Shown piece after piece: positions 5,947-25,752 of a stretch of DNA of 64,000 nt (position 1 is its first letter; each line of letters starts with the position of its first letter). The notes under the pieces are model-generated. The model had not been told where the DNA came from and ran no database searches. It saw nothing but the letters and a program-made list of their open reading frames with translations. Position numbers and translations under genes: made by a program. Origin of the DNA: an uncultured Ignavibacteriota bacterium (GTDB lineage: Bacteria; Bacteroidota; Ignavibacteria; UBA10030; BY39); contig CAMTWO010000024.1 in the NCBI GenBank assembly GCA_947085405.1, positions 579 through 64,578 of the forward strand, given 5' to 3'.

Positions 5947-6022
5947 AAGATGGATACAAAAATTATTTGGAAAGAAAGTATCAAATAAAAAAATATCTAA
6001 CAACAAAAATAAAGGAATAACC

Positions 6023-8935: not shown

Positions 8936-8986
8936 TTTTTTAACCGTTCCTCCAAAGGGTGACAAGTAAAACGGTTAGTTAAACTA

Positions 8987-9014
8987 CTTAGTGTCCGTCA
9001 GTTGACGGACTAAG
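8987..9014 (+). terminator. Stem-loop (cttagtgtccgtca g ttgacggactaag) downstream of the sheath gene
   Basis: A perfect 8-bp core palindrome gtccgtca/tgacggac extended by ctta/taag, followed by a T-rich tract (ctctttgtg). Confidence 0.5.
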
Positions 9015-9123
9015 TGCTCTTTGTGAATAAGTGGTAACTGATGTTATGCATTCAAAGTTATCGTGTCTCAATAGCCCCGAACTTCACAGGTCGTGTGATA
9101 ACTGTAGGAACTCATCCCCCGAC

Positions 9124-9160
9124 CCCTTCTCTTGCCAAGAGAAGGGGGAATTGGATTTTT
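9124..9160 (+). terminator. Rho-independent terminator-like hairpin (ccccttctcttg/caagagaagggg) followed by a T-run
   Basis: A perfect 12-bp inverted repeat at 9124-9148, then gaattggattttt. This is the second hairpin in the 310-bp gap between the sheath and spike genes. Confidence 0.55.
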
Positions 9161-9245
9161 CTCCGCGGGGTTGAGTTCATTATATATACTTTTTACACAA
9201 CCCCTTAATAACTTACTATTTTATAATTAGATAATCAGGTGACTT

Positions 9246-11003
9246 ATGGCTTCTAAAGTAACTAATATAATTGTAACCGCTACAATAAATGGAAAGCCAC
9301 ACGGCTTGCGATTCGTAAACGCTAACGTGTGGCAATCGCTTTTTTCGCATTGCAAAATACGCCTTGCACTCGGATTCGATGAAGCGGAATGTAATTCTGT
9401 TTTCGATAAAGCGGTTTCCTCATGGCTCGGTGAAAAGTTAGAACTCACTGTTTCGGACCAATTAGATAACAGTATTTCTAAAAAATATATTGGCATCATT
9501 CACAACCTTCACCTCGAGACCGGTAATCTTATAGTCGATGCTATGTCGGAAGATTATTCTCTCAACTTCGTCGAGAAACATAAATCCTTCGTCGATATGT
9601 CTGCTTTCGATGTAGTGAATACAATTGTTAAAAATAAAACGTTTGCAAATTCCTTGACGGGACCGTCAAACGGAGTTCAGTTTCGGTTTTTGCACCAGTA
9701 TGACGAAACAGATTATGAATTCTTAAAGCGCCTCGCACGTTACGATGGCTGCGTCTTGTATCATGATGGCGAGACATTTAGATACGAACCAAAACTAAGC
9801 GGAACGAAGGAAATTAAATTAGGATTAGAAAATATTTCGGATGTCCGGCTTAATTGTTTTCTGGGAGATACGAGGTTCCACGGCGTTCCTTATGATTATC
9901 AGAAACATTCTGAGTCATCAGATTTGGTTGTAAACTCAGGAAGTTACCCGGCGCCTAATCATCCCTTTGGTTCAAAAATTTTCCAAAAATCAAATGACCT
10001 ACATAAAGAACCGACTGAAATTTACAAAGAGCCGATTGTGCAGAAAAGTGACTTTGAGAACTTTATTAAAAATCAGCAGGCATTTTACAGCGGACTGCAT
10101 ATCAACGTAACGGGGACAACAAATCATCCGATGGTTACAATCGGGCGTGCGATTGAGGCACCCGATCATCCGATATTGAAAGATAAGTTTGTAGTGGTGG
10201 AATTAGAAGCCGAATTTAAAGGTAATATTTACAGCGCATCATTCAAGGCAGCCGTTAAAGATTCTATCTTGCGAAAATTAGCCACCGACGAACGTGAATA
10301 CATGGGGCTTTTACAACCAGCGATAGTTGTCGATAATAAAGACCCTGAAAATATTGGCAGGGTGCAAATTCGTTACCTCTGGGATACGGATGGGAGTGCT
10401 CACGCTTGGGCTCGTGTGTTAACATCTTTTGCCGGTTCTGACCACGGCTCGCACCTAACTCCGCGAATATCAGATCAGGTTTTGGTTGGATGCGAACACG
10501 GCAACACATCGCTTCCGGTAGTCATCGGTTCACTTTATCACAGCGAAAACAAACCCGATTGTAAAACGGATAACGGCACCGAAGAAGTGCTGATTGCAAA
10601 AACTTCTTCCGGCTCGGAAATTCGAGTTATTGAAAAACAAGGTTCTGAGCAAATCTTGATCACTATGCCCAACGGTGAAAACCTGATACGGATGGAACAC
10701 AAAGGTCCCAAAATTTTCATCGAGTCGAACAATGGGACTATAGAGATTCACGCAAAAACGATAAAGATCAATGCCGATGATAAAATTGAAATGAAAGCTG
10801 ACAAAATTGAAATTTCAGCAACCTCCAAAGCCGAGATCAAAGCACAGGATATTGATGCGACGGCAGGTAATAAGCTATCTCTCGCTGGCTCATCTTCTGC
10901 CGAATTGAAATCGTCAGCATCAGTCAAAGTTAGCGGTACGCAAGTCGAATCTTCAGCAGCCGCAACTAACGTAATCAAAGGAGCAATGGTACAAATTAAT
11001 TAA
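9246..11003 (+). CDS. VgrG-like spike protein (gp27/gp5 hub fused to a C-terminal beta-helix)
   Basis: 585 aa. Central region RVQIRYLWDTDGSAHAWARVLTSFAGSDHGSHLTPRISDQVLVGCEHGNTSLPVVIGSLYH resembles the gp5 OB-fold / phage baseplate V / VgrG core. C-terminus carries repetitive beta-strand motifs (IEIHAKTIKINADDKIEMKADKIEISATSKAEIKAQDID...). Confidence 0.65.
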   Translation: MASKVTNIIVTATINGKPHGLRFVNANVWQSLFSHCKIRLALGFDEAECNSVFDKAVSSWLGEKLELTVSDQLDNSISKKYIGIIHNLHLETGNLIVDAMSEDYSLNFVEKHKSFVDMSAFDVVNTIVKNKTFANSLTGPSNGVQFRFLHQYDETDYEFLKRLARYDGCVLYHDGETFRYEPKLSGTKEIKLGLENISDVRLNCFLGDTRFHGVPYDYQKHSESSDLVVNSGSYPAPNHPFGSKIFQKSNDLHKEPTEIYKEPIVQKSDFENFIKNQQAFYSGLHINVTGTTNHPMVTIGRAIEAPDHPILKDKFVVVELEAEFKGNIYSASFKAAVKDSILRKLATDEREYMGLLQPAIVVDNKDPENIGRVQIRYLWDTDGSAHAWARVLTSFAGSDHGSHLTPRISDQVLVGCEHGNTSLPVVIGSLYHSENKPDCKTDNGTEEVLIAKTSSGSEIRVIEKQGSEQILITMPNGENLIRMEHKGPKIFIESNNGTIEIHAKTIKINADDKIEMKADKIEISATSKAEIKAQDIDATAGNKLSLAGSSSAELKSSASVKVSGTQVESSAAATNVIKGAMVQIN

Positions 11004-11183
11004 AAATTTAAAAAAAATCTAAATTCAAAACACTAAATTCTAAATTCCGAAGGAATCACTTAGTGACAAATCTTAAATTCAAATAACACAATATATGAAT
11101 TCGTTAAATATTAGTTACAGTATTTTGGGTTTTGAATATTCGAATTTGTTTCGGATTTCAAAATTAGAAATTAGAAATTATTT

Positions 11184-11636
11184 ATGGCAGTTTTACATAT
11201 TCCATTAACATTATCGCCAATCGGTACTTTTCAAAGGGCGAGTACTGAAGAGAATATAGTCGGTTCACGACTTCGATTATTTGTTCTATCGGGTGCTGGC
11301 GAATATCTCAAATTACCATCGCCGGGCATTCGTGCTATGTGGGTTCAATTCTACAATATGGGAATGAGCGCCCGCTTCTGCGATATTATGGAAGAAGACA
11401 GACGAAGATCTCTCGAACAGATTATTAAAGCCGAAGTGAACAATTGGTTTGGAGATATAGCGGAAATTCAGGATGTGAACTTGGTTGGTGATGAGCACGA
11501 AGAAAATGGAATTAAATTCCGCACCGAGAATAAAGAATATGTTTTTAAATTTAAGGTATCAAGAAGCGAAAAAGGACTGAAAGCAGGAACTGTAGGTCCG
11601 TGGAATATTATCGAGGAAACACATGACGTTCACTGA
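11184..11636 (+). CDS. gp25/TssE-like baseplate wedge protein (GPW_gp25 lysozyme-like fold)
   Basis: 150 aa. Matches the gp25 pattern I.GSRLRLFVLSGAGEYLKLPSPGI......F..........IIKAEVNNW (cf. i.qsi..iL.T..GER...P.fG......F......wEPR). Overlaps the next gene by 14 nt. Confidence 0.55.
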   Translation: MAVLHIPLTLSPIGTFQRASTEENIVGSRLRLFVLSGAGEYLKLPSPGIRAMWVQFYNMGMSARFCDIMEEDRRRSLEQIIKAEVNNWFGDIAEIQDVNLVGDEHEENGIKFRTENKEYVFKFKVSRSEKGLKAGTVGPWNIIEETHDVH

Positions 11637-13134
11637 TTTTAAATCACGTTTTATCAGTCAGTACAAGGGGGATATAAAAGATCCCATACTAACAACAATC
11701 CTACAAACTCTTGAAGCTTATCAGGAGGAAGTACAGGATCAACTCCTTTTATCAACCTATGCTCAACGGAGCGATCAGGTTTCCGACGGTTTGTTTGAAG
11801 TGCTTCGCCGTCATTTGTTTGGTCAGATGTTTCCGGGTCCGGCGTATGTTGTTCTGCAATCTACTTTGCGTGAGGTTAAAACTGCACAGCCGGTGTTATT
11901 GGAGCAAGCTCATTATTTCAACGTACAAGATAAGGAAGGGGCAAAAGTTCTATTCGCTCCTCAATACCCCGCTTGGATTGTTCCTGCCAACACGAACGAT
12001 GTTCGGGTTGATAGCTATGGCGACGACCTGATGCTTGGCTTTAGCATTTATATCGGTAATTTGCAAGACATCGAAAATGGTGAAGTAAGTATTTTCACAG
12101 GCGATATAGACCCGCTGCTGGTGGAACGACTCCGCTGCCGAATTACACAAACTACCGGTTTCAAAGTTATCGAAAATTCGAGGAAGTCAGTTATTAGAAC
12201 TAAATATCCGGGTAACTACAACATCATTGATGATTTCTTTCTCACACCTTATGAATCCCGCTTCATCAAAATTCCTTTCGATATTTTCATCGCCGCTTCA
12301 TCAAGTCGAGGAAAAGATGATATGATATGGATTCCTTTTCCGGGGCTTGGGGCTTTTGCACAAGAATTGGAAAAGAAACTCACACTCAATTCATTTCTTA
12401 CCTGGAATATGGTGGAGATGGAAGCTCTTGCGTTGCCAGTCGATCAATTCCGGTATAACATTCCGATTACCGCGCATAAGTCGAAGGAAACAATCATTAC
12501 TTCGGTTACAGACCTCGGCACAGACCCGCCGATTGAATACATAAACGCTGCTACAGTTATGGATCCGGGTTATCCGTTTCAATATACTACGTCGGTTGAT
12601 ATTCATAAAGATGAAATTGTTTTAGCTTTTTCTCCACCGCCTTCGGGCACAGTGAAAGTACAATATTGTCAGTACGATATTGGAGATGAATGCATCAACA
12701 TTGCATCAGGAAGAAGTTTCGGACTTTATCAAGGAATAGATGAAAGAGTAAAAAGCGCTCAATCGATTACTCCGACTCATCGTATCGAGGCTCTGAATAA
12801 CAAAGCACACATCTGGAATTATTTCAGATCGCTTCTTGCAAGCCGCCATCGCTGGTTAACTAAAGACGACTTGCGTGCAGCTATGATAGGTTATCCTCCA
12901 TTTAGCCATCGAAGTGATTTAGTTAACGCAAATGATATTTCATTTGAAGAAAAAGTCGGGCGTGTTAAAGGATTTTTAACTCCATTCACCGAAATAAATA
13001 TTCCTGTAAATGATGGTGGATTATTAGACGAGCCCGACAAAAGTTACTTCGAACAGCAAATAAGCGATTATATTAGAGGTAGAACAGTGAATGGTAATTT
13101 TATCAGAATAAAACTTGTATCTGCAGAAACATAA
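11623..13134 (+). CDS. Baseplate wedge protein (TssF / baseplate J / gp6-like), putative
   Basis: 503 aa. Position directly after gp25 and before the next wedge gene follows the TssE-TssF-TssG order. Translationally coupled at both ends (overlap at start, TAATG junction at end). No specific motif recognised. Confidence 0.4.
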   Translation: MTFTDFKSRFISQYKGDIKDPILTTILQTLEAYQEEVQDQLLLSTYAQRSDQVSDGLFEVLRRHLFGQMFPGPAYVVLQSTLREVKTAQPVLLEQAHYFNVQDKEGAKVLFAPQYPAWIVPANTNDVRVDSYGDDLMLGFSIYIGNLQDIENGEVSIFTGDIDPLLVERLRCRITQTTGFKVIENSRKSVIRTKYPGNYNIIDDFFLTPYESRFIKIPFDIFIAASSSRGKDDMIWIPFPGLGAFAQELEKKLTLNSFLTWNMVEMEALALPVDQFRYNIPITAHKSKETIITSVTDLGTDPPIEYINAATVMDPGYPFQYTTSVDIHKDEIVLAFSPPPSGTVKVQYCQYDIGDECINIASGRSFGLYQGIDERVKSAQSITPTHRIEALNNKAHIWNYFRSLLASRHRWLTKDDLRAAMIGYPPFSHRSDLVNANDISFEEKVGRVKGFLTPFTEINIPVNDGGLLDEPDKSYFEQQISDYIRGRTVNGNFIRIKLVSAET

Positions 13135-14014: not shown

Positions 14015-14665
14015 ATGGGACAACCAGCCGCACGTATAAGCGACATGCACGTATGCCCGATGGTAACACCGGGCGTTCCGCCAATTCCACATGTTGGTGG
14101 TCCTATTACTGGACCAGGAGTTCCTAACGTACTAATCGGTGGTATGCCTGCCGCTGTAATGGGCGATATGGCAACATGTGTGGGTCCACCGGATACTATT
14201 CTTAAAGGTTCGGTAGGTGTTCTGATTGGTGGCAAACCCGCTGCACGAATGGGCGATACTTGCGCACACGGCGGCACAATCGTTCTCGGATGTCCGACTG
14301 TTTTGATTGGCGAAGTGATGCCTGGCGCACCACCTGTTATTGTGCCACCTTTCGCTGTGCCGGTTCAGCCGGAAATGAAATCAAGCGAGAAAAAAACTAC
14401 TTCCCCAACTCCACCATCCAAAAAAGCTGAACAGAAACCTACTAAGAAAGAAGAAAAAAAGAAAACCGATTGGATTGAAGTAGAAGTAACAGATGAAGAT
14501 GGAAAACCGATGATAGGTGAAAAATATGAGATTGAGTTGCCAGACGGCTCTATTAAAAGAGGTGTTATTGATGCAAAAGGTAAAATTAAATTAGAGGGCG
14601 TTGAACCCGGAACTTGCAAAATTACTTTTCCTGAAATTGATTCTGAAGAATGGGAAATAAAATAA
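14015..14665 (+). CDS. PAAR-repeat spike-tip protein with Lys/Pro-rich linker and ~70-aa C-terminal beta domain
   Basis: The N-terminal 100 aa are a classic PAAR domain (PAARISDMHVCP..., GGMPAAVMGDMATCVGP, GGKPAARMGDTCAHGG). This is followed by KKTTSPTPPSKKAEQKPTKKEEKKK and a small domain (KYEIELPDGSIKRGVIDAKGKIKLEGVEPGTCKITF). Confidence 0.85.
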   Translation: MGQPAARISDMHVCPMVTPGVPPIPHVGGPITGPGVPNVLIGGMPAAVMGDMATCVGPPDTILKGSVGVLIGGKPAARMGDTCAHGGTIVLGCPTVLIGEVMPGAPPVIVPPFAVPVQPEMKSSEKKTTSPTPPSKKAEQKPTKKEEKKKTDWIEVEVTDEDGKPMIGEKYEIELPDGSIKRGVIDAKGKIKLEGVEPGTCKITFPEIDSEEWEIK

Positions 14666-15337
14666 TTGGAGCTATACATGAGCAAGGTACACATAGTAAA
14701 ACAAGGTGAGTGTTTAGCGAGCATTGCAAAGAAGAATGAGTTTAAAAATTGGAAAACTATTTATGAACATCCAGATAATAAAGATTTAAAAAATAAGAGG
14801 CCAAATCCAAATATTTTGTTCCCGGGCGATAGGATTATTATACCCGATAAATCGTTAAAGCAAGCAAATATAGAAACCAATGGAAAATACAAAATTAAGA
14901 TTAAGACGCAAAAAGTACAATTTAGAATTTACTTAAAAGATAGAAAAGGAAAACCTATAGCAAATAAGAATTATGAATTAATGATTGATAATCGAACATT
15001 TTACGGAACGACCGGTTCAAAGGGGTTAATAGAAAGAGAAATATCGGAAGATGCTGACGTTGGATATTTAACTGTAGAGATTAATGAACCACCATATAGT
15101 GAGAAATATAGTTGGAAAATTAAGATCGGAAATCTTGATCCAGCAGATGAAATCAGCGGAATACAAGCTCGTTTAAACAACTTAGGGTTTTCCTGCGGCA
15201 CTGTTGATGGTATCATTGGACAAAAAACGAAGGATGCATTAAAAGCTTTTCAACGGAGTTATAACATAGAACCAACGGGGAAAATTGATAATACTACAAA
15301 GAAGAAAATAGAAGATATTCATGACCAAAAAAGTTGA
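14666..15337 (+). CDS. LysM-domain plus peptidoglycan-binding (PG_binding_1) domain protein
   Basis: N-terminal LysM (KVHIVKQGECLASIAKKNEF...ILFPGDRIIIP). C-terminal PG_binding_1 (IQARLNNLGFSCGTVDGIIGQKTKDALKAFQRSYNIEPTGKID). Starts immediately after the PAAR gene stop. Confidence 0.75.
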   Translation: MELYMSKVHIVKQGECLASIAKKNEFKNWKTIYEHPDNKDLKNKRPNPNILFPGDRIIIPDKSLKQANIETNGKYKIKIKTQKVQFRIYLKDRKGKPIANKNYELMIDNRTFYGTTGSKGLIEREISEDADVGYLTVEINEPPYSEKYSWKIKIGNLDPADEISGIQARLNNLGFSCGTVDGIIGQKTKDALKAFQRSYNIEPTGKIDNTTKKKIEDIHDQKS

Positions 15338-15346
15338 TTGTATTAT

Positions 15347-16375
15347 ATGAGTAACAATGAAGCATTAATTTCTCGAGTATCATCAGACTCATCTGAAGCT
15401 AATACCTTGGTGCCAACAGCATACGAAAACCGCTTAATTGTTGTAGCACAAGGTATCGAACGTCAGGATAAAGATTTTGTTGGTGAGGACGAGATTTACC
15501 GAATACCTAATTATTTAAGAAATAGGATATCTGGATTGTTATTTAGTTCTGAAACTTTTGGCACTTACGTAAGTCATGAACAAGGCGTAATTTTTAATAT
15601 AAGTATTGTGACAAAGAAAGATGAATACAAATCATTTCTTGAAACGCCTGGAGTTCATGTTGTTTATAGCGGTCATGCGCGGTATGGTAGAGGACCTTGT
15701 TTTGGAGATGACCATGGACCAGGAGAAGATTGGGAAAATGGTACAGATCCTATGAGAACTGGATTATACAGAATAGGTTATCCTTACATTGCAATTTCAT
15801 TAGAAGATATTCCTCATCATCAGTACACTGCAAATGTGATTCCGGCGTCTGAGGTAATATCGAAGAATGAATGTCATCCCGATCTTAAACGAGCGTATTC
15901 GCGTTTGCGAACTTACAGTATTAATAACTTAGATCCAAGTGGTGTACTTATTAACCATGTAGCAGGTTCATTTAGCCCAGAAGATAGAATATGGGCAATT
16001 AAAGGATCTGTAGGCGGTCACCGTGGGACTCATCTTGTCCTTCGTGCCGGCTGGGAAAACACAGTTAGTTCACCAATGGACCTTGGTGCTACAAATATTC
16101 AGTGTCGTGTATTTTGTCATTTTGGGTGTAGTACATTCAAACATAATTATCGAATATTACGATTCGAAAAATATTGGAGAAGAACTGACACAGATCGGTT
16201 TGCGTTTTGGACAACTGCTCCTTCATACTTCATTGCGACTCGGTTTTGGCTTGTTAGGATATTGACCTATCCTAAATATAATGCTTTCGAATCATGGAAG
16301 CCTAGTTTAGATTATGCTGTTAAACGCACAAATCAGGATTTGAGAAGTATAGGACATACATATCGAATAATATAA
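15347..16375 (+). CDS. Hypothetical protein; candidate cargo/effector (His/Cys-containing region GHARYGRGPCFGDDHGPGED, C-terminal hydrophobic segment)
   Basis: ORF follows directly after the LysM gene. ATG at 15347 (a TTG at 15338 is also in frame). No recognisable family; the effector role is inferred from position only. Confidence 0.45.
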   Translation: MSNNEALISRVSSDSSEANTLVPTAYENRLIVVAQGIERQDKDFVGEDEIYRIPNYLRNRISGLLFSSETFGTYVSHEQGVIFNISIVTKKDEYKSFLETPGVHVVYSGHARYGRGPCFGDDHGPGEDWENGTDPMRTGLYRIGYPYIAISLEDIPHHQYTANVIPASEVISKNECHPDLKRAYSRLRTYSINNLDPSGVLINHVAGSFSPEDRIWAIKGSVGGHRGTHLVLRAGWENTVSSPMDLGATNIQCRVFCHFGCSTFKHNYRILRFEKYWRRTDTDRFAFWTTAPSYFIATRFWLVRILTYPKYNAFESWKPSLDYAVKRTNQDLRSIGHTYRII

Positions 16376-16421
16376 TGTTAAATTATGTAAAAACATTTTT
16401 TAAAAATGGTAAGTTTGGAGC

Positions 16422-17099
16422 GTGTTTATGATAACTTCTAAAATTTCTAAAAATTACAATTTTTTATTTTCTACGATTTTAATGCTACTTATTCTTAGTG
16501 GATGCGAACAAAATATTGAAAGGAGAAAAAATATGACTAAAGATCAAGTAATTGAAAGATTAAAACAAATAGATGAGAAACAATATGCAATAATAGATTT
16601 CCTTGCAGATTCATTATTGAATGATATAAGAGAGAAAGTTACCGCAGTTTCATCCTGCTGGCTTGATCCAGATAAGAACCTATCTTCTAATGCTGCAATG
16701 TTAATTAGTCAACTAGACGAAATTGCAATCATTCCGTTAATGAACACCAGTGTTCCCGAAAGCATCACAAAAAGAGTCTGGCTAATTCACACTATAACAG
16801 AAGCTGAGTTGGAATTGCGGGAAAAACTAATTGCTTATCTCGACAAGATGTTAGAAGATAAGTCGTCAGTTCTGATTCCAGAGCCCATCGGAAGAGAAGA
16901 AGAGTTACCCAAGCCACGGCGTGTTTGTGACGAAGCTTATATGCAAATGAGGCGATTATTAAATACATCAGAAAAAGTTGAAGAATATTACCTTAATGTG
17001 GATGCTTACTTAGATTTAACAGATGATGAAAAAGATAAAGAGATTTCAAAAGTGAAAAAAGCACGAGTATGGAAGAAATTTATCGAAGATTTCGATTAA
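16422..17099 (+). CDS. Lipoprotein (signal peptide plus lipobox LSGC); possible immunity protein
   Basis: N-terminus MFMITSKISKNYNFLFSTILMLLILSGC has a type II signal peptide. 46 bp downstream of the candidate effector. Confidence 0.5.
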   Translation: MFMITSKISKNYNFLFSTILMLLILSGCEQNIERRKNMTKDQVIERLKQIDEKQYAIIDFLADSLLNDIREKVTAVSSCWLDPDKNLSSNAAMLISQLDEIAIIPLMNTSVPESITKRVWLIHTITEAELELREKLIAYLDKMLEDKSSVLIPEPIGREEELPKPRRVCDEAYMQMRRLLNTSEKVEEYYLNVDAYLDLTDDEKDKEISKVKKARVWKKFIEDFD

Positions 17100-17132
17100 A
17101 CATGGTCTAAAAAATTTCTATTATTAATATTT

Positions 17133-17561
17133 ATGCAAGTACATTTCAGCGGACATATAACAGCTCCCTCGCCCCAGAAGGTAAGTGAAAGTGACCTTAT
17201 GGCTTTAATGCCTAATGAACGCAGGGGTTGTTTCGTTTATTCAGTGAGAGTTGAATTTCCGGAAAATAATTTGGCTGTCATGTTTACACCCTCAATTTTT
17301 ATAAACAAATCCCTCAGCAATAATGAAGCGAGCGAAGTAGAAACACATGAAAGACGGCATTTTGAGGATTTCCGCCGTCTTGCAAGAGAATTGAAGGCAG
17401 ATATAGAAGATGCAATAGAGGCAGGTAAAGATCCTGAAATCCGTACCCGTTTAGAGTGGTTCGACTATGATAATTGTATCGCGAGACAGAGTAGGCACAA
17501 TGAAGAGGGTATTACTGATATTTTACCCTGTATACAACCCTTTTCCTCGAGACCTATTTAG
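17133..17561 (+). CDS. Hypothetical protein
   Basis: 142-aa ORF with no recognisable motif. Confidence 0.3.
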   Translation: MQVHFSGHITAPSPQKVSESDLMALMPNERRGCFVYSVRVEFPENNLAVMFTPSIFINKSLSNNEASEVETHERRHFEDFRRLARELKADIEDAIEAGKDPEIRTRLEWFDYDNCIARQSRHNEEGITDILPCIQPFSSRPI

Positions 17562-17642: not shown

Positions 17643-20159
17643 TTGGATATATTGGTAGTTATTTTAATATTGGGAATTTTAACCGGTATTCTTGCTGGGG
17701 TATATTTTTTTAAACGTCGAAAAGTTACGGTTAAACTTTCTACCGACGAATTTAATCTATTAACGAGAAAATATTTTGACAGGTATGAATTACGCTCTTT
17801 TCTTGTGCGCGGCGACTTTAATACGACATACGAGGCATTCGACACCGAAAAAAATAAAACAGTATTGATTCGCGTACTTCATAAAAAACTCATCTATAAC
17901 GACAACGTTGCACAGCAATTTCAGTTTAAAGCTGAAATGTTAAAATATCTAGCGGAACGTTTCCCCGGAAAACTATTCCTACAAAATATTCGCTTCGGTA
18001 CCACATACGTTGACGATGAACCGCGTCCATTCATAGTAACTGATTTGATACACGGCGTTTCATTAGCTGAAGTGCTCGATAAACAAAACCGCCTTTCCCC
18101 CAACGACGCAATAAAAATAATCAACCAAATTGGAAAAGCTATTTCGGCTGCTCATAGCCAGAGAATCTGGATTCGCGATTTAGCGCCCGGAAACATTATC
18201 TTAAGTTTAGATGACGGCGGGAATTTAGTTGTCACGCTCGCTAACATCGGAGTCCCATTTAAAAATCTTCCTTCCGACGAAGCCGTACAATTCAAGCAAG
18301 GTTACTATTCTCCCGAGGACAAACGCGGAGAATCAGTTAACGAACAATCCGACGTTTATGCACTAGCTGCTTTGATGTTTAAAATGTTAGAAGGATACGA
18401 CCTCTCGTTCCGCAACGAAGGTGAGCCGTGGTCGGGAATTACCTCCGTGCTCGAAAATGCGTTAATGAACGACCCGCACAAACGCCCGTCTTCAGTTGAG
18501 AACTTTTTGAAAACAACAAATTCTATTCTCACTTTTAAATCGAATGTTAAGGATATGCGATGGAGTGTTGTGATTCCACAAATTTTAAAAGGACATACAA
18601 CAGTAAAGGTAAAATCGTCAGGACAAGAAACTATTGCACGAAAAGCCCCCGGGCGAGGTGTTGGTATTCCGATGTCCAAACAGACAAAAGAAAAAGTTTC
18701 TCATTCTTTACTAACCGGATTAGCAACGGCAATTATTTTTTGGTTTGGTAAAAAAATTGAATCTGTGCTTTCGAGTCCCAAAAAAGCAATAAGAGTAGCT
18801 ACAATTAGTATAGTAGCATTAGCAGTTGGATTGTGGTATTTTGTTTTTTCTCCCGATAAAACTACAATTTCAGTTTTTACCGAACCGCCGGGAGCCGTTG
18901 TTACGGTAAACGATGCACCAAGTGGAAAAAACACACCTCTTGAAAACTTCACTGTCGATGTTGGTAAATTATCAATAAAAGTTCACAAAAAAGATTTCTT
19001 CGCAGCCGAAACTTCTATCGTTACCAGCGAAGGACAGCATACAGAGTTGAATTTTAACCTAAAACCATCCGGGACATTATCGATTTCTGTAATGCCTCCC
19101 GACGCGATTGTAGTAGTAAATAAAGATACGATTCCACCTTTCCAACTTGGGAGTGTTGAACGGTCGGTTGGTAAGCATCGGATTACTGTGTTGCATTCCG
19201 TTTACGGCGAGAAGTCCGAAGATGTAGATTTAAAACAGGGAGAAAATAAAAATCTTCGATATAATCTCGCACCCACAGGTGGGGCTGCTCTGGTGGAAAG
19301 GTTGATAATTAATTCTGAACCTTCAGGAGCTTCGGTATTTATCGGCGAAATGGAGATCGGAAAAACTCCATACAGAGATAGTCTTATTCAACCGGGTTAT
19401 CACAAAATTAAAATCGTTGTCGGACCTGACTTTGAAGATTACGAACAGGTCGTTAGAATTATTGGAAATAAACCTGTAACAATCGAAGCTAAATTATCCC
19501 CCGCCGGATTTATTAATATATCTTCACAACCGGGCGGTGTTCCGGTATTTATGGACGGAAAAGAGATTGGAGTTACACCGGTAACAAACCAGAAGGTTGC
19601 ATCGGGCAGACATAGATTTAAAATGCAAAAGGATGGATTTAAAGATTTCGACACGACAGTAAACATATCGCAAAAACAATCTTACACTATAAGTAAAAAT
19701 TTAGTCCCGATGATCGGTAAGCTGAAACTGCGTGCAAAACCTTACGGCTCAATTTATATAGACGACCAACTGAAAAAATCGGATACTGATACTCCGTTTA
19801 ATATTGAAGTTCCATCCGGAACGCGTAAAATAAAAATTACACACCCGAAATACGGAACTTGGGAAAAATCAGTAAATATTAAAACTGAAGAATCGCTCGA
19901 AATTTTAGTCGATTTTGATAAAATCTATACTCTAACGATTACTGCTTTTGACGATGCCGGAAGCCCACTCCGTGCCGAAATATTTGTAGATGATAAATCG
20001 GAGGGTAAACAAACGCCATCGCAAATTAAAGTTCGGAGCGGATTGCATAAAATTGAAGTCCGTTTGGATGGTTACACGCTATTAGATGGGGCGAAAACTA
20101 TTAACTTTGAAAAGGATTTTGATCAGCCATTAAAATTCACACTCAAAAAAGGAAAATAG
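17643..20159 (+). CDS. Membrane protein with a degenerate Ser/Thr kinase-like domain (predicted pseudokinase) followed by six PEGA domains
   Basis: TTG start. N-terminal TM segment. Kinase-like core retains IRDLAPGN (HRDLKPxN-like) and SPE...DVYALAALMF, but the VAIK lysine is replaced (VLIRVL), there is no GxGxxG loop, and the DFG triplet is LAN. A second hydrophobic span (~aa 360-395) is followed by six repeats of the PEGA pattern (e.g. SEPSGASVFIGEMEIGKTPY, SQPGGVPVFMDGKEIGVTPV). Confidence 0.7.
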   Translation: MDILVVILILGILTGILAGVYFFKRRKVTVKLSTDEFNLLTRKYFDRYELRSFLVRGDFNTTYEAFDTEKNKTVLIRVLHKKLIYNDNVAQQFQFKAEMLKYLAERFPGKLFLQNIRFGTTYVDDEPRPFIVTDLIHGVSLAEVLDKQNRLSPNDAIKIINQIGKAISAAHSQRIWIRDLAPGNIILSLDDGGNLVVTLANIGVPFKNLPSDEAVQFKQGYYSPEDKRGESVNEQSDVYALAALMFKMLEGYDLSFRNEGEPWSGITSVLENALMNDPHKRPSSVENFLKTTNSILTFKSNVKDMRWSVVIPQILKGHTTVKVKSSGQETIARKAPGRGVGIPMSKQTKEKVSHSLLTGLATAIIFWFGKKIESVLSSPKKAIRVATISIVALAVGLWYFVFSPDKTTISVFTEPPGAVVTVNDAPSGKNTPLENFTVDVGKLSIKVHKKDFFAAETSIVTSEGQHTELNFNLKPSGTLSISVMPPDAIVVVNKDTIPPFQLGSVERSVGKHRITVLHSVYGEKSEDVDLKQGENKNLRYNLAPTGGAALVERLIINSEPSGASVFIGEMEIGKTPYRDSLIQPGYHKIKIVVGPDFEDYEQVVRIIGNKPVTIEAKLSPAGFINISSQPGGVPVFMDGKEIGVTPVTNQKVASGRHRFKMQKDGFKDFDTTVNISQKQSYTISKNLVPMIGKLKLRAKPYGSIYIDDQLKKSDTDTPFNIEVPSGTRKIKITHPKYGTWEKSVNIKTEESLEILVDFDKIYTLTITAFDDAGSPLRAEIFVDDKSEGKQTPSQIKVRSGLHKIEVRLDGYTLLDGAKTINFEKDFDQPLKFTLKKGK

Positions 20160-20326
20160 ATAAATTAAAGAAACCGCTGAAAAATCTTTCTACCTTTTAA
20201 CCGTTTCATTTATCCGCCTCTCCGAAGGAGTCCATTGGACTGGCGGGACGGTTTATAAACAATTTTTCAGAAGTGTTTAATATAAAAAGATGAAGCTAAT
20301 TCACAAAAACCAAAATTGGAGGATGT

Positions 20327-20890
20327 ATGATAGGTAAGTTGTTGTACAAGTATCGAAATGTTGCTGCCGTAATAATTGGAGTTATTATATTTGGGTTTTT
20401 CCTGCCCACTCTCGCTCCTATTATGGCACAAACGCAGAATGTCTGCGATGAAAAAATAAAGCAAGCCGAACAAAAGTTCTACGATGGACTGTTCGACGAT
20501 GCGATAGCGCTTTTAAACAATTGTTTAAAAGAGAGCAGCGTTACTAAGCAAGAACGAGCACGAGCTCACGAATTGCTTGCAAAAGTATATCTTGGAAAAG
20601 ACTATCAGGAACAAGCTGAAAATGCTATAAGAAAGCTATTAGAGTTGGTTCCCACCTATGCACCTAACCCTGATAAAGATACACCGACTTATGTAGCTTT
20701 AGTAGAAAAAATCAGAAGTCAACAGCCAGAAGAACCTCAAGCTACTGATGAACAAAAAAATGATAAAGCGTGGTACGAGAATACCTGGGTTATAGTAGGT
20801 GCCGGTGTTGCTGTGGTTGGGGCTGTAGTTGCAGTACTTCTGCTGACAAAAGAGGAGAAGAAACAGCCACCAACCGTATATCCGGATTAA
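20327..20890 (+). CDS. Signal-peptide/TM - helical (TPR-like) domain - C-terminal TM anchor protein, paralog A
   Basis: 187 aa. About 60% identical to the 22330-22905 product (CDEKIKQAEQKFYDGLFDDAIALLNNCLKE...LLAKVYLGKDY...LLELVPTY). Pro/Glu-rich linker then C-terminal hydrophobic helix. Confidence 0.6.
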   Translation: MIGKLLYKYRNVAAVIIGVIIFGFFLPTLAPIMAQTQNVCDEKIKQAEQKFYDGLFDDAIALLNNCLKESSVTKQERARAHELLAKVYLGKDYQEQAENAIRKLLELVPTYAPNPDKDTPTYVALVEKIRSQQPEEPQATDEQKNDKAWYENTWVIVGAGVAVVGAVVAVLLLTKEEKKQPPTVYPD

Positions 20891-20974
20891 AATATTCTGA
20901 TTTTATTTGAAAGAAAAAAAAGTTAGTATGGAAATTAATTATCAATATGAAAACATTATATGTGGAGAATACTT

Positions 20975-22243
20975 ATGAAAAATATATTTATTATTATAAT
21001 TGCAACTTTGTTGCTTGGTCTTATGTTTTTTGGATGCAAAAAAGATGAAGGAGCTCTCGGACCGATCACGGTAAGTGGTTTTGTCAAAGATTTTTTTGGA
21101 TTACCAGTGAGCGGAGCTGCTGTAATCATTCCTGGGAAGTCTGCTGTAACTACTAGCGCCGCCGGAACTTTCTCAATTCCAAACGTTACTGTTCCGTACG
21201 ATATATCTGTGGTAATAAGTGCGGGAAACGTTGCGATGATATATCAGGGCTTGAATCGCCCCGACCCCAAACTTCTCTATCTTTCTTTCCCGTCTATATC
21301 GAGAAATGCAACAATCACCGGTACAGCACCCGCCGCGTCTGGAAAAACGACTAAAATTTATTTTGTAAGTGGCGCTAATTTTTCCTCGGTTACTGCCGAC
21401 CCAACAACTGGAGCTTACTCCTTTAATGCCTATTGGTATGATACTTCCAATACCGCAAATGGAAAACTATACTTATTAAGGTATTCTACTGACATTGCGG
21501 GGACTCCAACCATCTTCGACGGATATGCTTCAAAATCGCTTACAGTTCAAAACGGTGCAAGCTATACAAATCAAAATTTCTCAACTGCTGACGTTATTGA
21601 CCCACCAGATGTAACGATCACTGGCGTTGTAAATACTCCAGCAGGTTATTCGCTTTCAAATCGGCGTCTGTACATTATATTCGATAATGCCAAAATTAGT
21701 TTAAGGAGTGAGCTTACCCCAATCGTCTCGAATAATTTTACATTTGCTGTTCCCAATATATCGGGTGTTCAATTCGGAATCCGGGCAGATGCGTCGATGA
21801 GCAGCACACCCAACACGGTAGGTACTTCTTTCACTAAATTAGGAATAAACGCCGGGTCAACGAACGTAAATGTTACGTTGGAGTCCTCGCCACGGTTGGC
21901 ACTACCTCCTCATAATGCTGCAAATATAGATTATAATTCAGAGTTTACATGGAGTCAAGGTACGGGCGACGGTGTAAATCTTGTTCAAATTTATTCTTCA
22001 GCTACTAACAGCCCCAGATATTATATCTTCACAAGGGCGTCGAATTTAAAAATACCCGATTTTTCGGTACACGGATTAGGGTTACCAGCAAATACGTCTT
22101 ATTCTTGGAGAGTTTATCGGTACTTACCAATTCCTTCTACTGATTATGCCGCATCAAATACATTTGTAAAGTGGTTGCGAGAAATGACTTCCGATTTAGG
22201 TTATACATATTCCGAAACATTTAATTTTACAACTAAGCCATAA
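20975..22243 (+). CDS. Lipoprotein with carboxypeptidase-regulatory-like beta-sandwich region
   Basis: MKNIFIIIIATLLLGLMFFGC lipobox. VSGFVKDFFGLPVSGAAVIIPGKS...GTFSIPNV pattern. An alternative upstream ATG lies at 20960. Confidence 0.55.
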   Translation: MKNIFIIIIATLLLGLMFFGCKKDEGALGPITVSGFVKDFFGLPVSGAAVIIPGKSAVTTSAAGTFSIPNVTVPYDISVVISAGNVAMIYQGLNRPDPKLLYLSFPSISRNATITGTAPAASGKTTKIYFVSGANFSSVTADPTTGAYSFNAYWYDTSNTANGKLYLLRYSTDIAGTPTIFDGYASKSLTVQNGASYTNQNFSTADVIDPPDVTITGVVNTPAGYSLSNRRLYIIFDNAKISLRSELTPIVSNNFTFAVPNISGVQFGIRADASMSSTPNTVGTSFTKLGINAGSTNVNVTLESSPRLALPPHNAANIDYNSEFTWSQGTGDGVNLVQIYSSATNSPRYYIFTRASNLKIPDFSVHGLGLPANTSYSWRVYRYLPIPSTDYAASNTFVKWLREMTSDLGYTYSETFNFTTKP

Positions 22244-22329: not shown

Positions 22330-22905
22330 ATGTTTAAACGATTTCTTTTTAATCGTGGCGGTCCATTAGTAATTATTATTTGGACAATAATTATCGCTCT
22401 GTTGTTTCAACCCCTTACCGGAGCTTATGCTCAGGTAAAGGGAGTATGTGAGGAGAGGTTGAAAGAAGCAGAGAAAAAATTTTATGACGGTCTTTTTGAC
22501 GACGCAATAACCTTGCTGAATCAATGTCTTAAAGAACCAAATCTTGCTCAACAGGAGAGGGCAAAAACACACGAGCTTTTAGCTAAAGTTTACTTAGGTA
22601 AAGATTATCTTGACCAGGCGGAGAATGCACTTAAAAAATTACTTGAGTTAGTTCCCACTTATACAGCTAATCCAGAAAGGGATACGCCAACATTTGTTGC
22701 CTTAGTCGATAAAGTAAAAGCTGAGCAACCTAAAGAACCTGAACCCGCAGAGAAAAAAGAAGAACCAGGCGCTTGGTACACAAACACATGGGTGTTGGTT
22801 GGTACCGGCGTAGCAGTTGCCGGTGGAGTTGCTCTGTTACTTCTTTCCGGTAAAAAAGAAGCAGAGACAGTAAATCCACTTCCTGCTCCACCAGGTTTGC
22901 CCTGA
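22330..22905 (+). CDS. Signal-peptide/TM - helical (TPR-like) domain - C-terminal TM anchor protein, paralog B
   Basis: 191 aa, GGAGGA RBS. Paralog of the 20327-20890 product. Confidence 0.6.
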   Translation: MFKRFLFNRGGPLVIIIWTIIIALLFQPLTGAYAQVKGVCEERLKEAEKKFYDGLFDDAITLLNQCLKEPNLAQQERAKTHELLAKVYLGKDYLDQAENALKKLLELVPTYTANPERDTPTFVALVDKVKAEQPKEPEPAEKKEEPGAWYTNTWVLVGTGVAVAGGVALLLLSGKKEAETVNPLPAPPGLP

Positions 22906-22961
22906 ACTATTTTAAAATATTAAACATGAAATATAAATTAATTTAAAGGAGAAAATTGGTC

Positions 22962-23759
22962 ATGAAAACATTTACTATTATTGTCTTAAGCCTAACCTTA
23001 ATCACAATTTCTTTCGCACAAGTACCGCAACTTGTTAATTACCAAGGTAAACTTGATTCTGCTGGTGTGCCTTTAAGCGGGACAAGAAATCTAACTTTTA
23101 AAATTTATGATGCCGCGACCGCCGGTTCTACACTCTGGACCGAGTTGCAGGCAAATGTAGCAATTGCAAACGGAATATTTAATGTGCTATTAGGAAGTGT
23201 TACACCCTTTACTGGGGGTGTCTTCGGTGGAACAGGTGAGCGTTATTTAGGAGTTACGGTAGGGACAGGAACTGAAATGGCACCTCGATATCGCATTACC
23301 AGTACAGCATTTTCAATTCGCGCCGCGAGTGCAGATTATGTATTATTTCAAAAGAATCCTATTTTAACCAGTCAAGCTACAACTCCATCGATCCTTTCTC
23401 TAACTACAACAGCTCAAACAGCAAGGACTTTGGCATTTACTGCACCGATGGCTGGGAAGATATTAGTAACAGCAAGCGGATTTTTAGAGATGGTTCTTTC
23501 GGTTAGCACTCCAACTTATGCAACTGTAAACCTTACAAACATTTCTACACCAACAGCTGTTTATGGGGATGGTATCATTGTATTACGTACTCCAAACACA
23601 CTACCTGCTGGTTCTTATTTTACTATTCCTTGGTCAGTAACTCGTGTATTCACTGTTACAGGAAGCGGGTCAGTATATGTACACGGTAAAATTGAATCTA
23701 GCTCTAATTCTGGAAGTTTATACGTATCAAGTATGTCTGTTCTATTTGTTCCAGATTGA
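22962..23759 (+). CDS. Secreted hypothetical protein (signal peptide)
   Basis: MKTFTIIVLSLTLITISFAQ signal peptide. AGGAG RBS 10 nt upstream of ATG 22962 (a TTG at 22956 is also in frame). Confidence 0.5.
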   Translation: MKTFTIIVLSLTLITISFAQVPQLVNYQGKLDSAGVPLSGTRNLTFKIYDAATAGSTLWTELQANVAIANGIFNVLLGSVTPFTGGVFGGTGERYLGVTVGTGTEMAPRYRITSTAFSIRAASADYVLFQKNPILTSQATTPSILSLTTTAQTARTLAFTAPMAGKILVTASGFLEMVLSVSTPTYATVNLTNISTPTAVYGDGIIVLRTPNTLPAGSYFTIPWSVTRVFTVTGSGSVYVHGKIESSSNSGSLYVSSMSVLFVPD

Positions 23760-23856
23760 TATTTTTTAATGACTCACTAATATTCAATAAATACAAGAAT
23801 AACTATATGAATGATCTTGAAATTAATAATATAAAAATAGATTGGAGGGTGATATT

Positions 23857-25752
23857 ATGAAATATAAATATAAAATAATACTCGGACTTATATTAGTCTG
23901 TATTAGTTATAAATCGTTTTCACAAACGCAATTATCGACATCAACACAAAGTAACGCTGGCGGTGTTTCTTCAAGTGGAGCTTTTACACTAACATCCACT
24001 TTCGGCCAACCATCACCTATCGGTATCGGTGTAAGCGGACAAATTAATTCTTCAAGCGGCTACATTTATCAAGCTACATTAGATGCTACTGCACCGACTA
24101 TCTCATTAGCTTCTATATCTCCTCCGGTAGCTGCTCAGCAGGTTACAGTCGTATTTACAGTAACTGATTTATCCGGCGTGGCAAATGCAACGTTGTTCTA
24201 TCGGCGGGGCGGCGATCAAACATTCACACCACTCACATTAACTAAAACAGTTAATAACTTTGATGGCGTTATTCCAGCAAGCTCCGTTACCTCTCGCGGT
24301 TTAGAATTTTATGTTACCGCTGCAGATGTTTATAATAACATTGCACGTTTTCCGGTTAGCAATATTTATTCTGCACAAGTTGCTGTTTTAGGTGGAGTTA
24401 CAAAACCAACAGCTCAACCTGCCGGCAGCGAACAAAATGCATATCGGCTGATTTCCCTACCAATAAGTGCAACTAATAAAACTCCCAACGCAGTATTGGA
24501 AGACGATTTAGGCGGCTACAATAATACCAAATGGCGGTTTTTTGAATTGAAGGATGGAAAATTACCTTACGTTGAGTTTGGAAATACATCGCAAATGCTT
24601 CCGGGAAAATCTTTCTGGCTGATTGTAAAGGAAGCTGGCAAGGTTATAAATACCGGTGCGGGTACTTCAAATTTCACACATAGAACTTATCCCATTCAGT
24701 TAGATACAGGTTGGACGTTCATCGGAAATCCATTTGACTTTGATATTCCGCTTGGTAATTTAGTTCGGAAAAGTGGCAGTGCTTTGGACCTGCGTAGTTA
24801 CTTTGGAAGCTGGTCAAATTATAGCAGTGCATTAATTCCGTTTGAGGGATATGCTGTCTCTAATTTATCGGGTTCGGTGGATACTCTTTTTGTAAATCCT
24901 AATATAGGTGTCCCCATACCATTAAAACAAGATGCCGAAAAATCAGAAGATGTTATCTGGAAAATAAAAATATTAGCAGAATGTAAAGACGCTAAAGATG
25001 ATGATAATGAAATAGTTATATCTCAGTCGGCAAAGGTTGATTATGATGAGTTAGACAAACCCGAACCGCCCGTAATCGGCGAATTTGTGTCTGTCTATTT
25101 TCCTCGCTCGAACTGGGGAAAGATATTGGATAAATTCTGCGTTGATGCCCGACCGAATCCTGCGGATGGGGCGGACTGGGAATTCGAAGTTCTCAGTAAT
25201 ATCGAAGATAAAATTGATTTGAAATTTGATGGATTGGAAAATATACCGCTTGAAACCGAAGTTGTGTTGATAGATAAGCTGATAAAATCGACTCAAGATT
25301 TGAAACAATCGGATAAATACTCTTTTACGAATATATCCAAAACTAATCCACGAAAGATGAACATATTAGTTGGAAGTCAATCATTTATTCAAAATAAACT
25401 AACAGAAATTGGGGCGATACCATCTGAATTCGAGCTATCCCAAAATTTCCCCAACCCGTTTAATCCTACTACTGTTATCCGATATGGCTTGCCTAATGCT
25501 GCTCACGTAACTATCAAAATTTATGATCTACTCGGACAAGAAATTATAACACTTGTGGATGAAGCACAAGAGAAGGGTTATCGTTCGGTTGAGTGGAATG
25601 GAAAAAATAGTTTGGGTACTGATATCGCCAGCGGATTATCCTCCAAAGGCGGATACGCCTCTGGCGTATATTTCTACAGGATTGAAGCATCTGATATACA
25701 AAATCCGGGTAATAAATTTGTACAAGTGAAAAGGATGCTCCTCCTACGCTGA
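23857..25752 (+). CDS. T9SS-sorted secreted protein (C-terminal Por sorting domain)
   Basis: Signal peptide MKYKYKIILGLILVCISYKSFSQ. C-terminus FPNPFNPTTVIRYGLP...KIYDLLGQEIITLVDE...VYFYRIEA...KRMLLLR. GGAGGG RBS. Confidence 0.75.
   Translation: MKYKYKIILGLILVCISYKSFSQTQLSTSTQSNAGGVSSSGAFTLTSTFGQPSPIGIGVSGQINSSSGYIYQATLDATAPTISLASISPPVAAQQVTVVFTVTDLSGVANATLFYRRGGDQTFTPLTLTKTVNNFDGVIPASSVTSRGLEFYVTAADVYNNIARFPVSNIYSAQVAVLGGVTKPTAQPAGSEQNAYRLISLPISATNKTPNAVLEDDLGGYNNTKWRFFELKDGKLPYVEFGNTSQMLPGKSFWLIVKEAGKVINTGAGTSNFTHRTYPIQLDTGWTFIGNPFDFDIPLGNLVRKSGSALDLRSYFGSWSNYSSALIPFEGYAVSNLSGSVDTLFVNPNIGVPIPLKQDAEKSEDVIWKIKILAECKDAKDDDNEIVISQSAKVDYDELDKPEPPVIGEFVSVYFPRSNWGKILDKFCVDARPNPADGADWEFEVLSNIEDKIDLKFDGLENIPLETEVVLIDKLIKSTQDLKQSDKYSFTNISKTNPRKMNILVGSQSFIQNKLTEIGAIPSEFELSQNFPNPFNPTTVIRYGLPNAAHVTIKIYDLLGQEIITLVDEAQEKGYRSVEWNGKNSLGTDIASGLSSKGGYASGVYFYRIEASDIQNPGNKFVQVKRMLLLR

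Follow-up and report, generated by a model that had tools for sequence, protein, structure and literature searches.

A predicted membrane pseudokinase with six PEGA domains conserved beside a divergent type VI secretion locus in Ignavibacteria

Kinase-fold genes are found in type VI secretion system (T6SS) loci of Pseudomonas, Serratia, and Agrobacterium, where they encode PpkA/TagE, and PpkA possesses a periplasmic vWA domain. PpkA is an active kinase partnered with Fha1/TagH and PppA/TagG (PMC13584744). In the secretion system of type VIIb (T7SSb), EssB/YukC is a membrane pseudokinase that is unable to bind ATP and acts as the interaction hub (PMC9600267). TssN is the only subunit of the T6SSiii membrane complex with a cytoplasmic domain; it binds TssK, and the gene order is tssG-K-N (PMC10781749). 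Here we describe a gene at positions 17643-20159 of a 64,000-nucleotide stretch of DNA (the window; contig CAMTWO010000024.1, positions 579 to 64,578) from an uncultured Ignavibacteriota bacterium, which encodes a membrane protein with a degenerate kinase domain and six PEGA domains within a T6SS locus whose left end is cut off at the window edge. All of the evidence is computational and is derived from sequences of metagenome-assembled genomes (MAGs).

The window protein resembles PpkA/TagE in being a kinase-fold protein encoded in a T6SS locus; however, its catalytic motifs are degenerate, it has a six-PEGA ectodomain in place of vWA, and identity is 19%. With neither Fha nor PppA in the window, no vWA domain, and a predicted inactive fold, it does not appear to be a member of the PpkA/TagE pathway. 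The best functional analogy is EssB/YukC, which likewise combines a cytoplasmic pseudokinase, a transmembrane (TM) segment, and an extracytoplasmic domain and is encoded in a secretion-system locus (PMC9600267, PMC12599244). EssB/YukC differs in belonging to the T7SSb of Firmicutes, in having one TM helix rather than two, and in its helical ectodomain; its pseudokinase domain, of ~200 aa, is far more eroded, and a test for a specific sequence or structure relationship between it and the window protein was negative. TssN, which acts with TssQOPR, shares with the window protein an inner membrane location, a lone cytoplasmic domain, and a TssQ-type TPR protein nearby (PMC10781749), and its hosts and the window host fall in one phylum-level group under GTDB Bacteroidota. 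Its encoding near tssG/tssK is paralleled in part, the pseudokinase gene coming after tssG, with or without PAAR and cargo in between, and near a TssK-like gene in L003, L013, and L014. TssN differs in its five TM helices and in a cytoplasmic domain that is EccD-like, and it lacks both a kinase fold and PEGA (PMC10781749). The window protein is not a homolog of EssB or TssN, since folds and neighbors differ.

Outside its own family, the nearest relatives of the protein (E ~1e-19) are canonical receptor kinases with a PEGA ectodomain (P0025-P0031), which have the order kinase-TM-PEGA but keep GxGxxG, VAIK, HRD, and DFG, are not known to be T6SS-linked, and in several cases carry TonB_C. Seven other conserved pseudokinase families derived from Hanks-type kinases have been published, namely ActPs1-3, GLW, CP1, DYD, and DLHK, from hosts in Actinobacteria, Firmicutes, Proteobacteria, and Cyanobacteria. 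DYD is similar to the window family in being membrane-bound and in replacing the beta3 Lys with Arg. By their descriptions the seven families are nevertheless distinct from it in motifs, taxa, and domain partners: GLW replaces HRD, DYD replaces DFG and is without the alphaC Glu, CP1 and DLHK are cytosolic, and none is described with PEGA or a T6SS link.

The reading that we favor, tentatively and with slightly less than even confidence, is that the window protein is a structural, envelope-spanning, non-catalytic component of a divergent T6SS. It is drawn from the combination of catalytic decay, a constrained fold and surface, and a fixed place between baseplate genes and envelope proteins. The features of the gene are as follows, with TM segments called at a Kyte-Doolittle hydropathy above 1.6.

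17643-20159, + strand: whole gene, with a TTG start, for the 838-aa membrane pseudokinase and its six PEGA domains
17646-17717, + strand: TM helix 1, aa 2-25, followed by KRRK (Kyte-Doolittle hydropathy 2.77; AlphaFold2 helix 2-25)
17718-17777, + strand: family-specific N-terminal extension, aa 26-45, VTVKLSTDEFNLL, a strand and helix before the N-lobe
17778-18542, + strand: Hanks-type kinase fold with degenerate catalytic motifs, aa 46-300
18543-18632, + strand: conserved extension on the C-terminal side of the kinase fold, aa 301-330, invariant at W307 and conserved at K322 and K324
18633-18701, + strand: basic low-confidence linker, aa 331-353 (predicted local distance difference test score, pLDDT, below 50 at residues 332-357)
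18702-18767, + strand: juxtamembrane helix, aa 354-375, LLTGLATAIIFWFGKKIESV, under the TM hydropathy threshold
18786-18854, + strand: TM helix 2, aa 382-404 (Kyte-Doolittle hydropathy 2.08; AlphaFold2 helix 379-402)
18855-20156, + strand: six tandem PEGA beta-sandwich domains, predicted periplasmic (Pfam, repeat alignment, and an all-beta AlphaFold2 model with pLDDT 80-93)

An earlier note on this DNA, made from the sequence alone, had recorded the open reading frame (ORF) at these positions, and we found it as described, on the forward strand and with 838 aa; starting instead at the TTG three codons further on (17652) would yield the 835 aa of its database twin P0001. With 24 close homologs and an overall ratio of nonsynonymous to synonymous substitution rates (dN/dS) of 0.07-0.11, it is a genuine gene rather than a chance ORF. 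From the N terminus, a TM helix is followed by a Hanks-type kinase fold, then by another TM helix, and finally by six PEGA domains. The only TM-grade segments are aa 1-25 and 382-404, both of which are modeled as helices by AlphaFold2; the note had correctly placed a TM segment after the kinase domain, and had overlooked the N-terminal one, so that there are two in total. Residues L32, D35, L39, L40, and F45 of the N-terminal extension are conserved. The six PEGA repeats that the note had counted are also recovered as six stretches matching Pfam PEGA (PF08308; E 2e-54, 181.9 bits against a cut-off of 20.8), and the ~70-aa repeats align with each other around the common pattern xPxGAxV...G..TP...G.H.I.V, with approximate bounds of aa 404-473, 474-546, 551-622, 623-691, 692-761, and 762-838. 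This is a genuine PEGA-domain protein.

The positive-inside rule would place TM helix 1 with its N terminus out and its C terminus in, so that the kinase-like domain is predicted to be cytoplasmic, given KRRK after TM helix 1 and a stretch of four Lys and one Arg between aa 370 and 384, before TM helix 2, and the PEGA array is predicted to be periplasmic. A periplasmic kinase domain was rejected on the basis of the same KRRK and Lys-rich stretch. The juxtamembrane helix probably lies on the cytoplasmic face of the membrane, because its hydropathy is sub-threshold and the basic stretch follows it.

The bilobal protein-kinase fold is beyond doubt. Pfam detects Pkinase at aa 52-260 (E 1.3e-15), the top phmmer match in the PDB is Mycobacterium tuberculosis PknB (E 8e-18), Foldseek comparison with PknB gives a TM(target) of 0.70-0.79, and the AlphaFold2 model has a mean pLDDT of 82, with 81-94 in the kinase domain. 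Both phmmer and MAFFT pair R77, D179, and N184 with K40, D138, and N143 of PknB, and phmmer also pairs E98 with E59. The motif positions are:

17802-17828, + strand: degenerate Gly-rich loop LVRGDFNTT (LGFGGMSEV in PknB), with VRGDFN aligned with GFGGMS
17871-17873, + strand: Arg77 in VLIRVL, replacing the beta3 (VAIK) lysine by alignment; Arg in 26 of 29 family members
17934-17936, + strand: Glu98, the retained alphaC glutamate, paired with E59 of PknB
18171-18194, + strand: catalytic loop IRDLAPGN in place of HRDxKxxN (His to Ile, Lys to Ala; Asp179 and Asn184 present)
18243-18251, + strand: N201-I202-G203 in place of DFG (MAFFT with PknB; end of beta8 in the AlphaFold2 model)
18309-18317, + strand: SPE, equivalent of the APE motif (Y221, Y222, P224, and E225 invariant)

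As HMMER was ambiguous at the DFG region, the MAFFT alignment and the AlphaFold2 model were used as two checks; in the latter, strand beta8 comprises residues 195-199, immediately ahead of A200-N201-I202-G203. The motif strings quoted in the earlier note are all found at their coordinates in the translation, and the losses that it listed, those of the VAIK lysine, the Gly-rich loop, and the DFG Asp, are confirmed by R77, VRGDFN, and NIG in the alignment with PknB. The note had allowed for canonical residues hidden by a local misalignment. None are hidden: in a single MAFFT alignment the canonical kinase-PEGA/TonB proteins P0025-P0031 (n = 7) present GxGxxG, VAIK, HRD, and DFG in register, at positions where the window protein and its relatives have RGDFN, VxxR, (I,V)R(D,E)xxPxN, and AN(I,V)G, and the missing catalytic residues are therefore not a misalignment artifact.

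The decay is shared across the family. Among 29 members aligned by MAFFT together with M. tuberculosis PknB, the beta3 position is Arg in 26 and Gly, Ser, and Lys in one each; the HRD Asp is Asp in 13, Glu in 15, and Ala in one; and the DFG Asp is Asn in 20, Asp in eight, and another residue in one. None of the 29 has the Gly-rich loop, His of HRD and Lys of the catalytic loop are missing throughout, and the catalytic-loop Asn is kept in 28. The catalytic-loop Asp that the note described as retained is thus present in the window protein as Asp179, and about half of the family has Glu instead. Sequence around these drifting positions is highly conserved (RGDFNTT, ANxGVPFKxLP, GYYSPE). Judged by the Gly-rich loop, the beta3 Lys, and the DFG Asp, the protein does not appear to be a competent Hanks-type kinase, and it is most likely catalytically dead or nearly dead. 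Motif alignment and family-wide degeneracy thus support the inactivity predicted by the note, and our preference for a non-catalytic role agrees with its proposal of a scaffold or sensor rather than a phosphotransferase.

The pseudokinase domain is under strong purifying selection. Between the window gene and three relatives of 88-91% identity, dN/dS is 0.05-0.065 in the pseudokinase domain and 0.07-0.13 in the PEGA part; since the domain has a dN/dS no higher than that of the PEGA part, its fold appears to be kept for a non-catalytic purpose. Constraint on the fold combined with relaxation at the catalytic positions is what marks a pseudoenzyme. The family is small. A word-indexed search of 5.8 billion proteins returned only 24 close relatives before generic kinases at E ~1e-19, and a profile of the N-terminal 440 aa, searched against 1.84 billion representatives at 50% identity, returned ~17 full-length clusters, all of them from MAGs of Ignavibacteria or Kapabacteria. 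Where a source is named, it is Ignavibacteriales/Ignavibacteriaceae, Candidatus Kapaibacterium, or a "Bacteroidota bacterium" MAG. Pattern scans of genomes and metagenomes yielded just a few extra loci, which indicates that the family is rare. L015 (Acidobacteriota) and L020-L027 were rejected as members, being generic kinases of 24-29% identity with no T6SS neighbors. No family member outside lineages carrying a T6SS of this kind was seen in the protein, representative, and pattern searches.

The gene stands immediately downstream of the T6SS core genes and a variable cargo block, which in the window comprise:

3715-5946, + strand: ClpV
5930-6559, + strand: TssB-like ORF, matching 176-178-aa proteins of related loci
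6612-7031 and 7050-7469, + strand: two paralogous 139-aa Hcp-like ORFs, the first with a faint match to PF05638 (E 0.03)
7505-8935, + strand: TssC, matching PF17541 only (E 5e-28)
9246-11003, + strand: VgrG
11184-11636, + strand: TssE-like protein, 150 aa
11623-13134, + strand: TssF-like protein, 503 aa
13134-13985, + strand: TssG
14015-14665, + strand: PAAR
14666-17561, + strand: variable cargo block of 2.9 kb between PAAR and the pseudokinase, four ORFs

Given its match, the ORF at 5930-6559 is probably TssB and would in fact start near Met32. The core from 7505 to 13134 is unusually divergent. TssC has no PDB relative by phmmer and no NCBIfam match, and its lineage consists of 47 clusters (P0246-P0292), of which NCBI gives every named one the label "hypothetical protein". 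The TssE-like and TssF-like proteins have no Pfam match and profile searches of the PDB returned nothing meaningful, so that both are assigned by position and size only.

Downstream, the envelope-protein module begins after a 167-nt spacer:

20327-20890, + strand: TssQ-like TPR companion (NCBIfam TssQ_fam, E 1e-6, with 29 bits where the cut-off is 65)
20960-22243, + strand: 427-aa lipoprotein companion (lipobox FFGC) with a CarboxypepD_reg domain
22330-22905, + strand: second TssQ-like paralog (TssQ_fam, E 1.9e-6, below the cut-off)
22956-25752, + strand: 267-aa secreted protein and 636-aa protein sorted by the type IX secretion system (T9SS), syntenic with the pseudokinase module in clade A

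The gene had been placed at the distal end of the locus, which proved incorrect, as conserved companions continue to at least 22905 and probably to 25752. Both TssQ-like paralogs have TPR, a signal peptide, and a C-terminal TM anchor, and score 28-29 bits with TssQ_fam; the gene at 20327-20890 is kept beside the pseudokinase in related loci. These two weakly matching proteins are all that appears of the known T6SS membrane complexes in the locus, where models of TssJ, L, M, N, O, P, R, A, and K found no match.

The upstream order TssC-VgrG-TssE-like-TssF-like-TssG(-PAAR-cargo/DUF4123) precedes the pseudokinase gene in the window and in the related loci L001/2, L003, L004, L006, and L008-10, and, against an identity of 87-96% in the core genes, that of the pseudokinase is 88-91%, the cargo in between having been replaced. 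Three clades, with ~27-47% mutual identity and different downstream genes, can be distinguished. Clade A, in which PEGA is fused to the pseudokinase, comprises the window, L006-L012, and L016; the gene directly follows tssG (L006) or tssG-PAAR-cargo (window, L008-10), and the TssQ-like and lipoprotein set comes next. In clade B (L001/2, L004, and L005) the pseudokinase is ~735 aa and without PEGA, its periplasmic part being a different all-beta region in the AlphaFold2 model, and it is adjoined by a 521-aa gene with three PEGA domains and TPR, followed by a PD40/outer membrane protein (OMP) beta-barrel protein. This shuffling of PEGA and TPR modules between adjacent genes suggests that the products act together. 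Clade C consists of the Kapabacteria loci L003, L013, and L014, with the order OmpA-like, DUF4123-like, pseudokinase, small TM protein, 460-aa protein, and 739-aa protein. A single small partner conserved across clades was considered and rejected, as the small proteins that follow the pseudokinase in clades B and C, compared with TssQ, proved to be beta-rich lipoproteins or TM proteins rather than TPR proteins.

The 460-aa clade C protein, together with a 448-aa homolog upstream of ClpV in L030, is TssK-like (PF05936, E 6.5e-5), at 22.3 bits against a cut-off of 23.4; like TssQ-like, this label denotes scores under curated thresholds. The sole PDB profile matches of this family are two TssK chains, which are colinear and not significant. 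In the Kapabacteria loci the TssK-like gene is two genes downstream of the pseudokinase, a position that recalls tssJ-K-L-M and tssG-K-N (PMC10781749). The other neighbors in clades B and C (497, 459, and 739 aa) gave no usable Pfam or PDB match, the TssK-like signal being confined to the 448/460-aa family. The TssK-like gene (448-460 aa) forms a conserved pair with a gene for a 730-739-aa soluble protein that has a coiled coil and weak P-loop GTPase matches (MMR_HSR1, DO-GTPase2); the pair is found at L030:914-4471, L003:12812-16416, and L013:6271-9877. In some loci it is upstream of ClpV; in Kapabacteria it is downstream of the pseudokinase. No TssK-like gene was found within the window. A T6SS without TssK in this lineage was rejected, since related loci carry the TssK-like gene, and by analogy with L031 the pair may be just beyond the left edge of the window.

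If the pseudokinase is a structural component, it would be held in the inner membrane by its two TM helices. Its kinase-like domain, the only cytoplasmic one of notable size in the envelope-protein module that adjoins it downstream, would then serve as a docking platform for the baseplate or sheath, contacting the TssK-like, TssE-like, TssF-like, and TssG proteins. The six PEGA domains would form a stalk of ~20 nm across the periplasm, a rough length estimated for six ~70-aa beta-sandwich domains by reference to Ig-like domains, and the stalk would meet the TssQ-like TPR proteins, lipoproteins, and outer membrane or surface proteins encoded just downstream. Such a mode of action would be like that of EssB/YukC in T7SSb and of TssN in the Bacteroidota T6SSiii. 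What is observed, namely the fold, the motif loss throughout the family, the purifying selection, the predicted two-TM topology, and the conserved neighborhood, is compatible with this arrangement, in which docking, the partners involved, and how far the stalk extends across the periplasm are proposals.

Several observations weigh against a structural role. In L032, which has a core of the same lineage, housekeeping genes come directly after TssG and no pseudokinase lies within 10 kb, and the pseudokinase modules of L007/L012 and L011 are detached from any T6SS gene. Genes 3' of the pseudokinase vary among the three clades, and distant relatives of the 427-aa neighbor are encoded outside any T6SS. 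One member of the 29, P0073, is alone in having Lys, Asp, and Asp together at the three catalytic positions. In addition, a nucleotide or some other anion could still be held by the conserved R56 and R77, by analogy with the ligand holding modeled or proposed for the DYD and DLHK pseudokinases (PMC12599244).

A more far-reaching form of the structural reading, which we regard as possible yet doubtful, is that the protein is the inner membrane hub of a third, undescribed T6SS membrane complex in Ignavibacteria/Kapabacteria, neither TssJLM nor TssNQOPR. In such a complex, on a similarly doubtful footing, the dead kinase would dock the baseplate and the PEGA stalk would span the periplasm, in convergence with EssB/YukC of T7SSb.

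The main rival, though still doubtful, is a non-catalytic sensor or switch descended from a PpkA/TagE-like receptor kinase, which would permit T6SS assembly while not itself being a stoichiometric component of the apparatus. PEGA would sense an envelope or cell-contact cue, and the pseudokinase would relay it allosterically, for example by dimerization. The receptor-kinase architecture fits this proposal, as does the existence of the canonical kinase-PEGA receptors P0025-P0031, and the conserved R77-E98 pair, N184, SPE, and activation segment suggest that an active-like conformation is maintained. The absence of a local gene in L032 and the detachment of some modules would also suit an accessory regulator. 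However, the pseudokinase is conserved as much as the structural core genes, its fixed neighbors are envelope proteins rather than regulators, and no FHA, PP2C, sigma factor, or response regulator is conserved beside it. A response regulator-SpoIIE gene does occur ~4 kb away in L006, on the opposite strand, and is not conserved. Scanning of the large ORFs across the 64-kb window, mostly of at least 100-120 aa, detected no FHA or PP2C domain and no SpoIIE match, in answer to a check for Fha-domain and PP2C genes proposed in the earlier note, and a PpkA/Fha/PppA phosphorylation pathway is thus not encoded in the window.

An atypical active kinase or nucleotide-dependent switch, in which Arg77, Arg56, and Asn201 would stand in for the canonical Lys and Asp in binding ATP and Asp179 would catalyze transfer to a T6SS component, is improbable. 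Asp179, Asn184, and Glu98 are present in the window protein, and P0073 has its three canonical residues. Every substitution is conservative (K>R, D>N/E), so that the window protein may bind nucleotide, and beta3-Arg families (DYD, ActPs2) and DLHK have been suggested or modeled to bind ATP or ligands in non-canonical ways. Against this, the Gly-rich loop is missing from every member; at the position of the catalytic Asp, 15 of 29 have Glu and one has Ala; 21 of 29 lack the Asp of DFG; and the HRD His and loop Lys have disappeared throughout. Drift at the catalytic site amid invariant surroundings is what is expected of lost catalysis, and the window encodes neither a partner phosphatase nor an FHA reader. 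Least likely of all, and in our view very unlikely, is an envelope protein without T6SS function, such as a cell-surface or T9SS-cargo module, that is merely beside T6SS loci, for although the L007/L012 and L011 modules are detached, T9SS-sorted proteins occur in and around the module, and relatives of the 427-aa neighbor are found in non-T6SS contexts, three divergent clades all adjoin the same T6SS core, DUF4123 adaptor family, or TssK-like gene, and the family is not seen outside lineages with a T6SS of this kind.

Some further features of the locus bear on its surroundings. The four cargo ORFs encode a 223-aa PG_binding_1 protein, a 345-aa product, a 225-aa lipoprotein (lipobox LSGC), and a 142-aa HExxH protein; in relatives whose flanking genes are 87-96% identical the block is replaced or much more diverged, and it is probably an effector/immunity cassette. 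The 142-aa ORF (17133-17561), directly 5' of the pseudokinase, contains the HExxH motif THERRH, shows 56-66% identity to its counterparts in L008-L010, and is matched by neither Pfam nor NCBIfam; it could be a small metallopeptidase-like toxin or adaptor. In L006, a 942-aa ORF directly after VgrG (L006:3221-6049) with a weak PI3_PI4_kinase match is a candidate for an effector linked to VgrG. TM helix 1 of the pseudokinase (17646-17717) has a nonsynonymous divergence (dN) of 0.55-0.72 relative to L008-L010, compared with 0.03-0.06 for the rest of the gene, which suggests a recombination breakpoint at the cargo/pseudokinase junction.

In the 167-nt spacer 3' of the gene, a consensus scan found no intergenic terminator; an imperfect GC-rich hairpin lies at 20199-20252 (AACCGUUU...CCGCC/GGCGG...GACGGUU), and the spacer folds no better than shuffled sequence (z = -1.6). 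The 427-aa lipoprotein (family P0213-P0245) has relatives of 31-34% identity outside T6SS contexts, for instance in Calidithermus terrae and next to ATP synthase and ribosomal genes. T9SS C-terminal sorting domains are present in four proteins inside the locus or flanking it (41-3676, 23842-25752, 27223-28599, and 29000-30976), and the synteny of the 636-aa protein with the module in clade A hints at a surface partner delivered by T9SS. An unrelated gene on the reverse strand (60768-63884) encodes a 1038-aa Type ISP restriction-modification enzyme (Type_ISP_C, 2.5e-90, and N6_Mtase).

Full-text literature searches returned no paper for "PEGA domain" with T6SS and nothing relevant for pseudokinase with "type VI secretion" or with PEGA, and the word pseudokinase is absent from a 2026 review of T6SS accessory factors (PMC13584744). 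A 2025 review predicted that membrane-bound pseudokinases might serve effector secretion (PMC12599244). We found no paper on a T6SS-linked receptor-kinase architecture turned pseudokinase, here in an unannotated T6SS lineage. To our knowledge, T6SS membrane complexes are known in two forms only, the TssJLM of Pseudomonadota and the TssNQOPR of Bacteroidota, which was published in 2024. What the locus indicates is a deep-branching lineage of Bacteroidota in which the T6SS possesses neither form and the single conserved membrane protein with a cytoplasmic domain is the pseudokinase. RGDFN, VxxR, and AN[IV]G, together with a TssC that matches PF17541 only, provide a handle for finding and annotating such systems, now labeled "hypothetical" at NCBI. 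If the structural role is true, a Bacteroidota family would be added to the short list of conserved bacterial pseudokinase families, and T7SSb and T6SS, which are of unrelated design, would each have independently recruited a dead Hanks kinase as a membrane hub.

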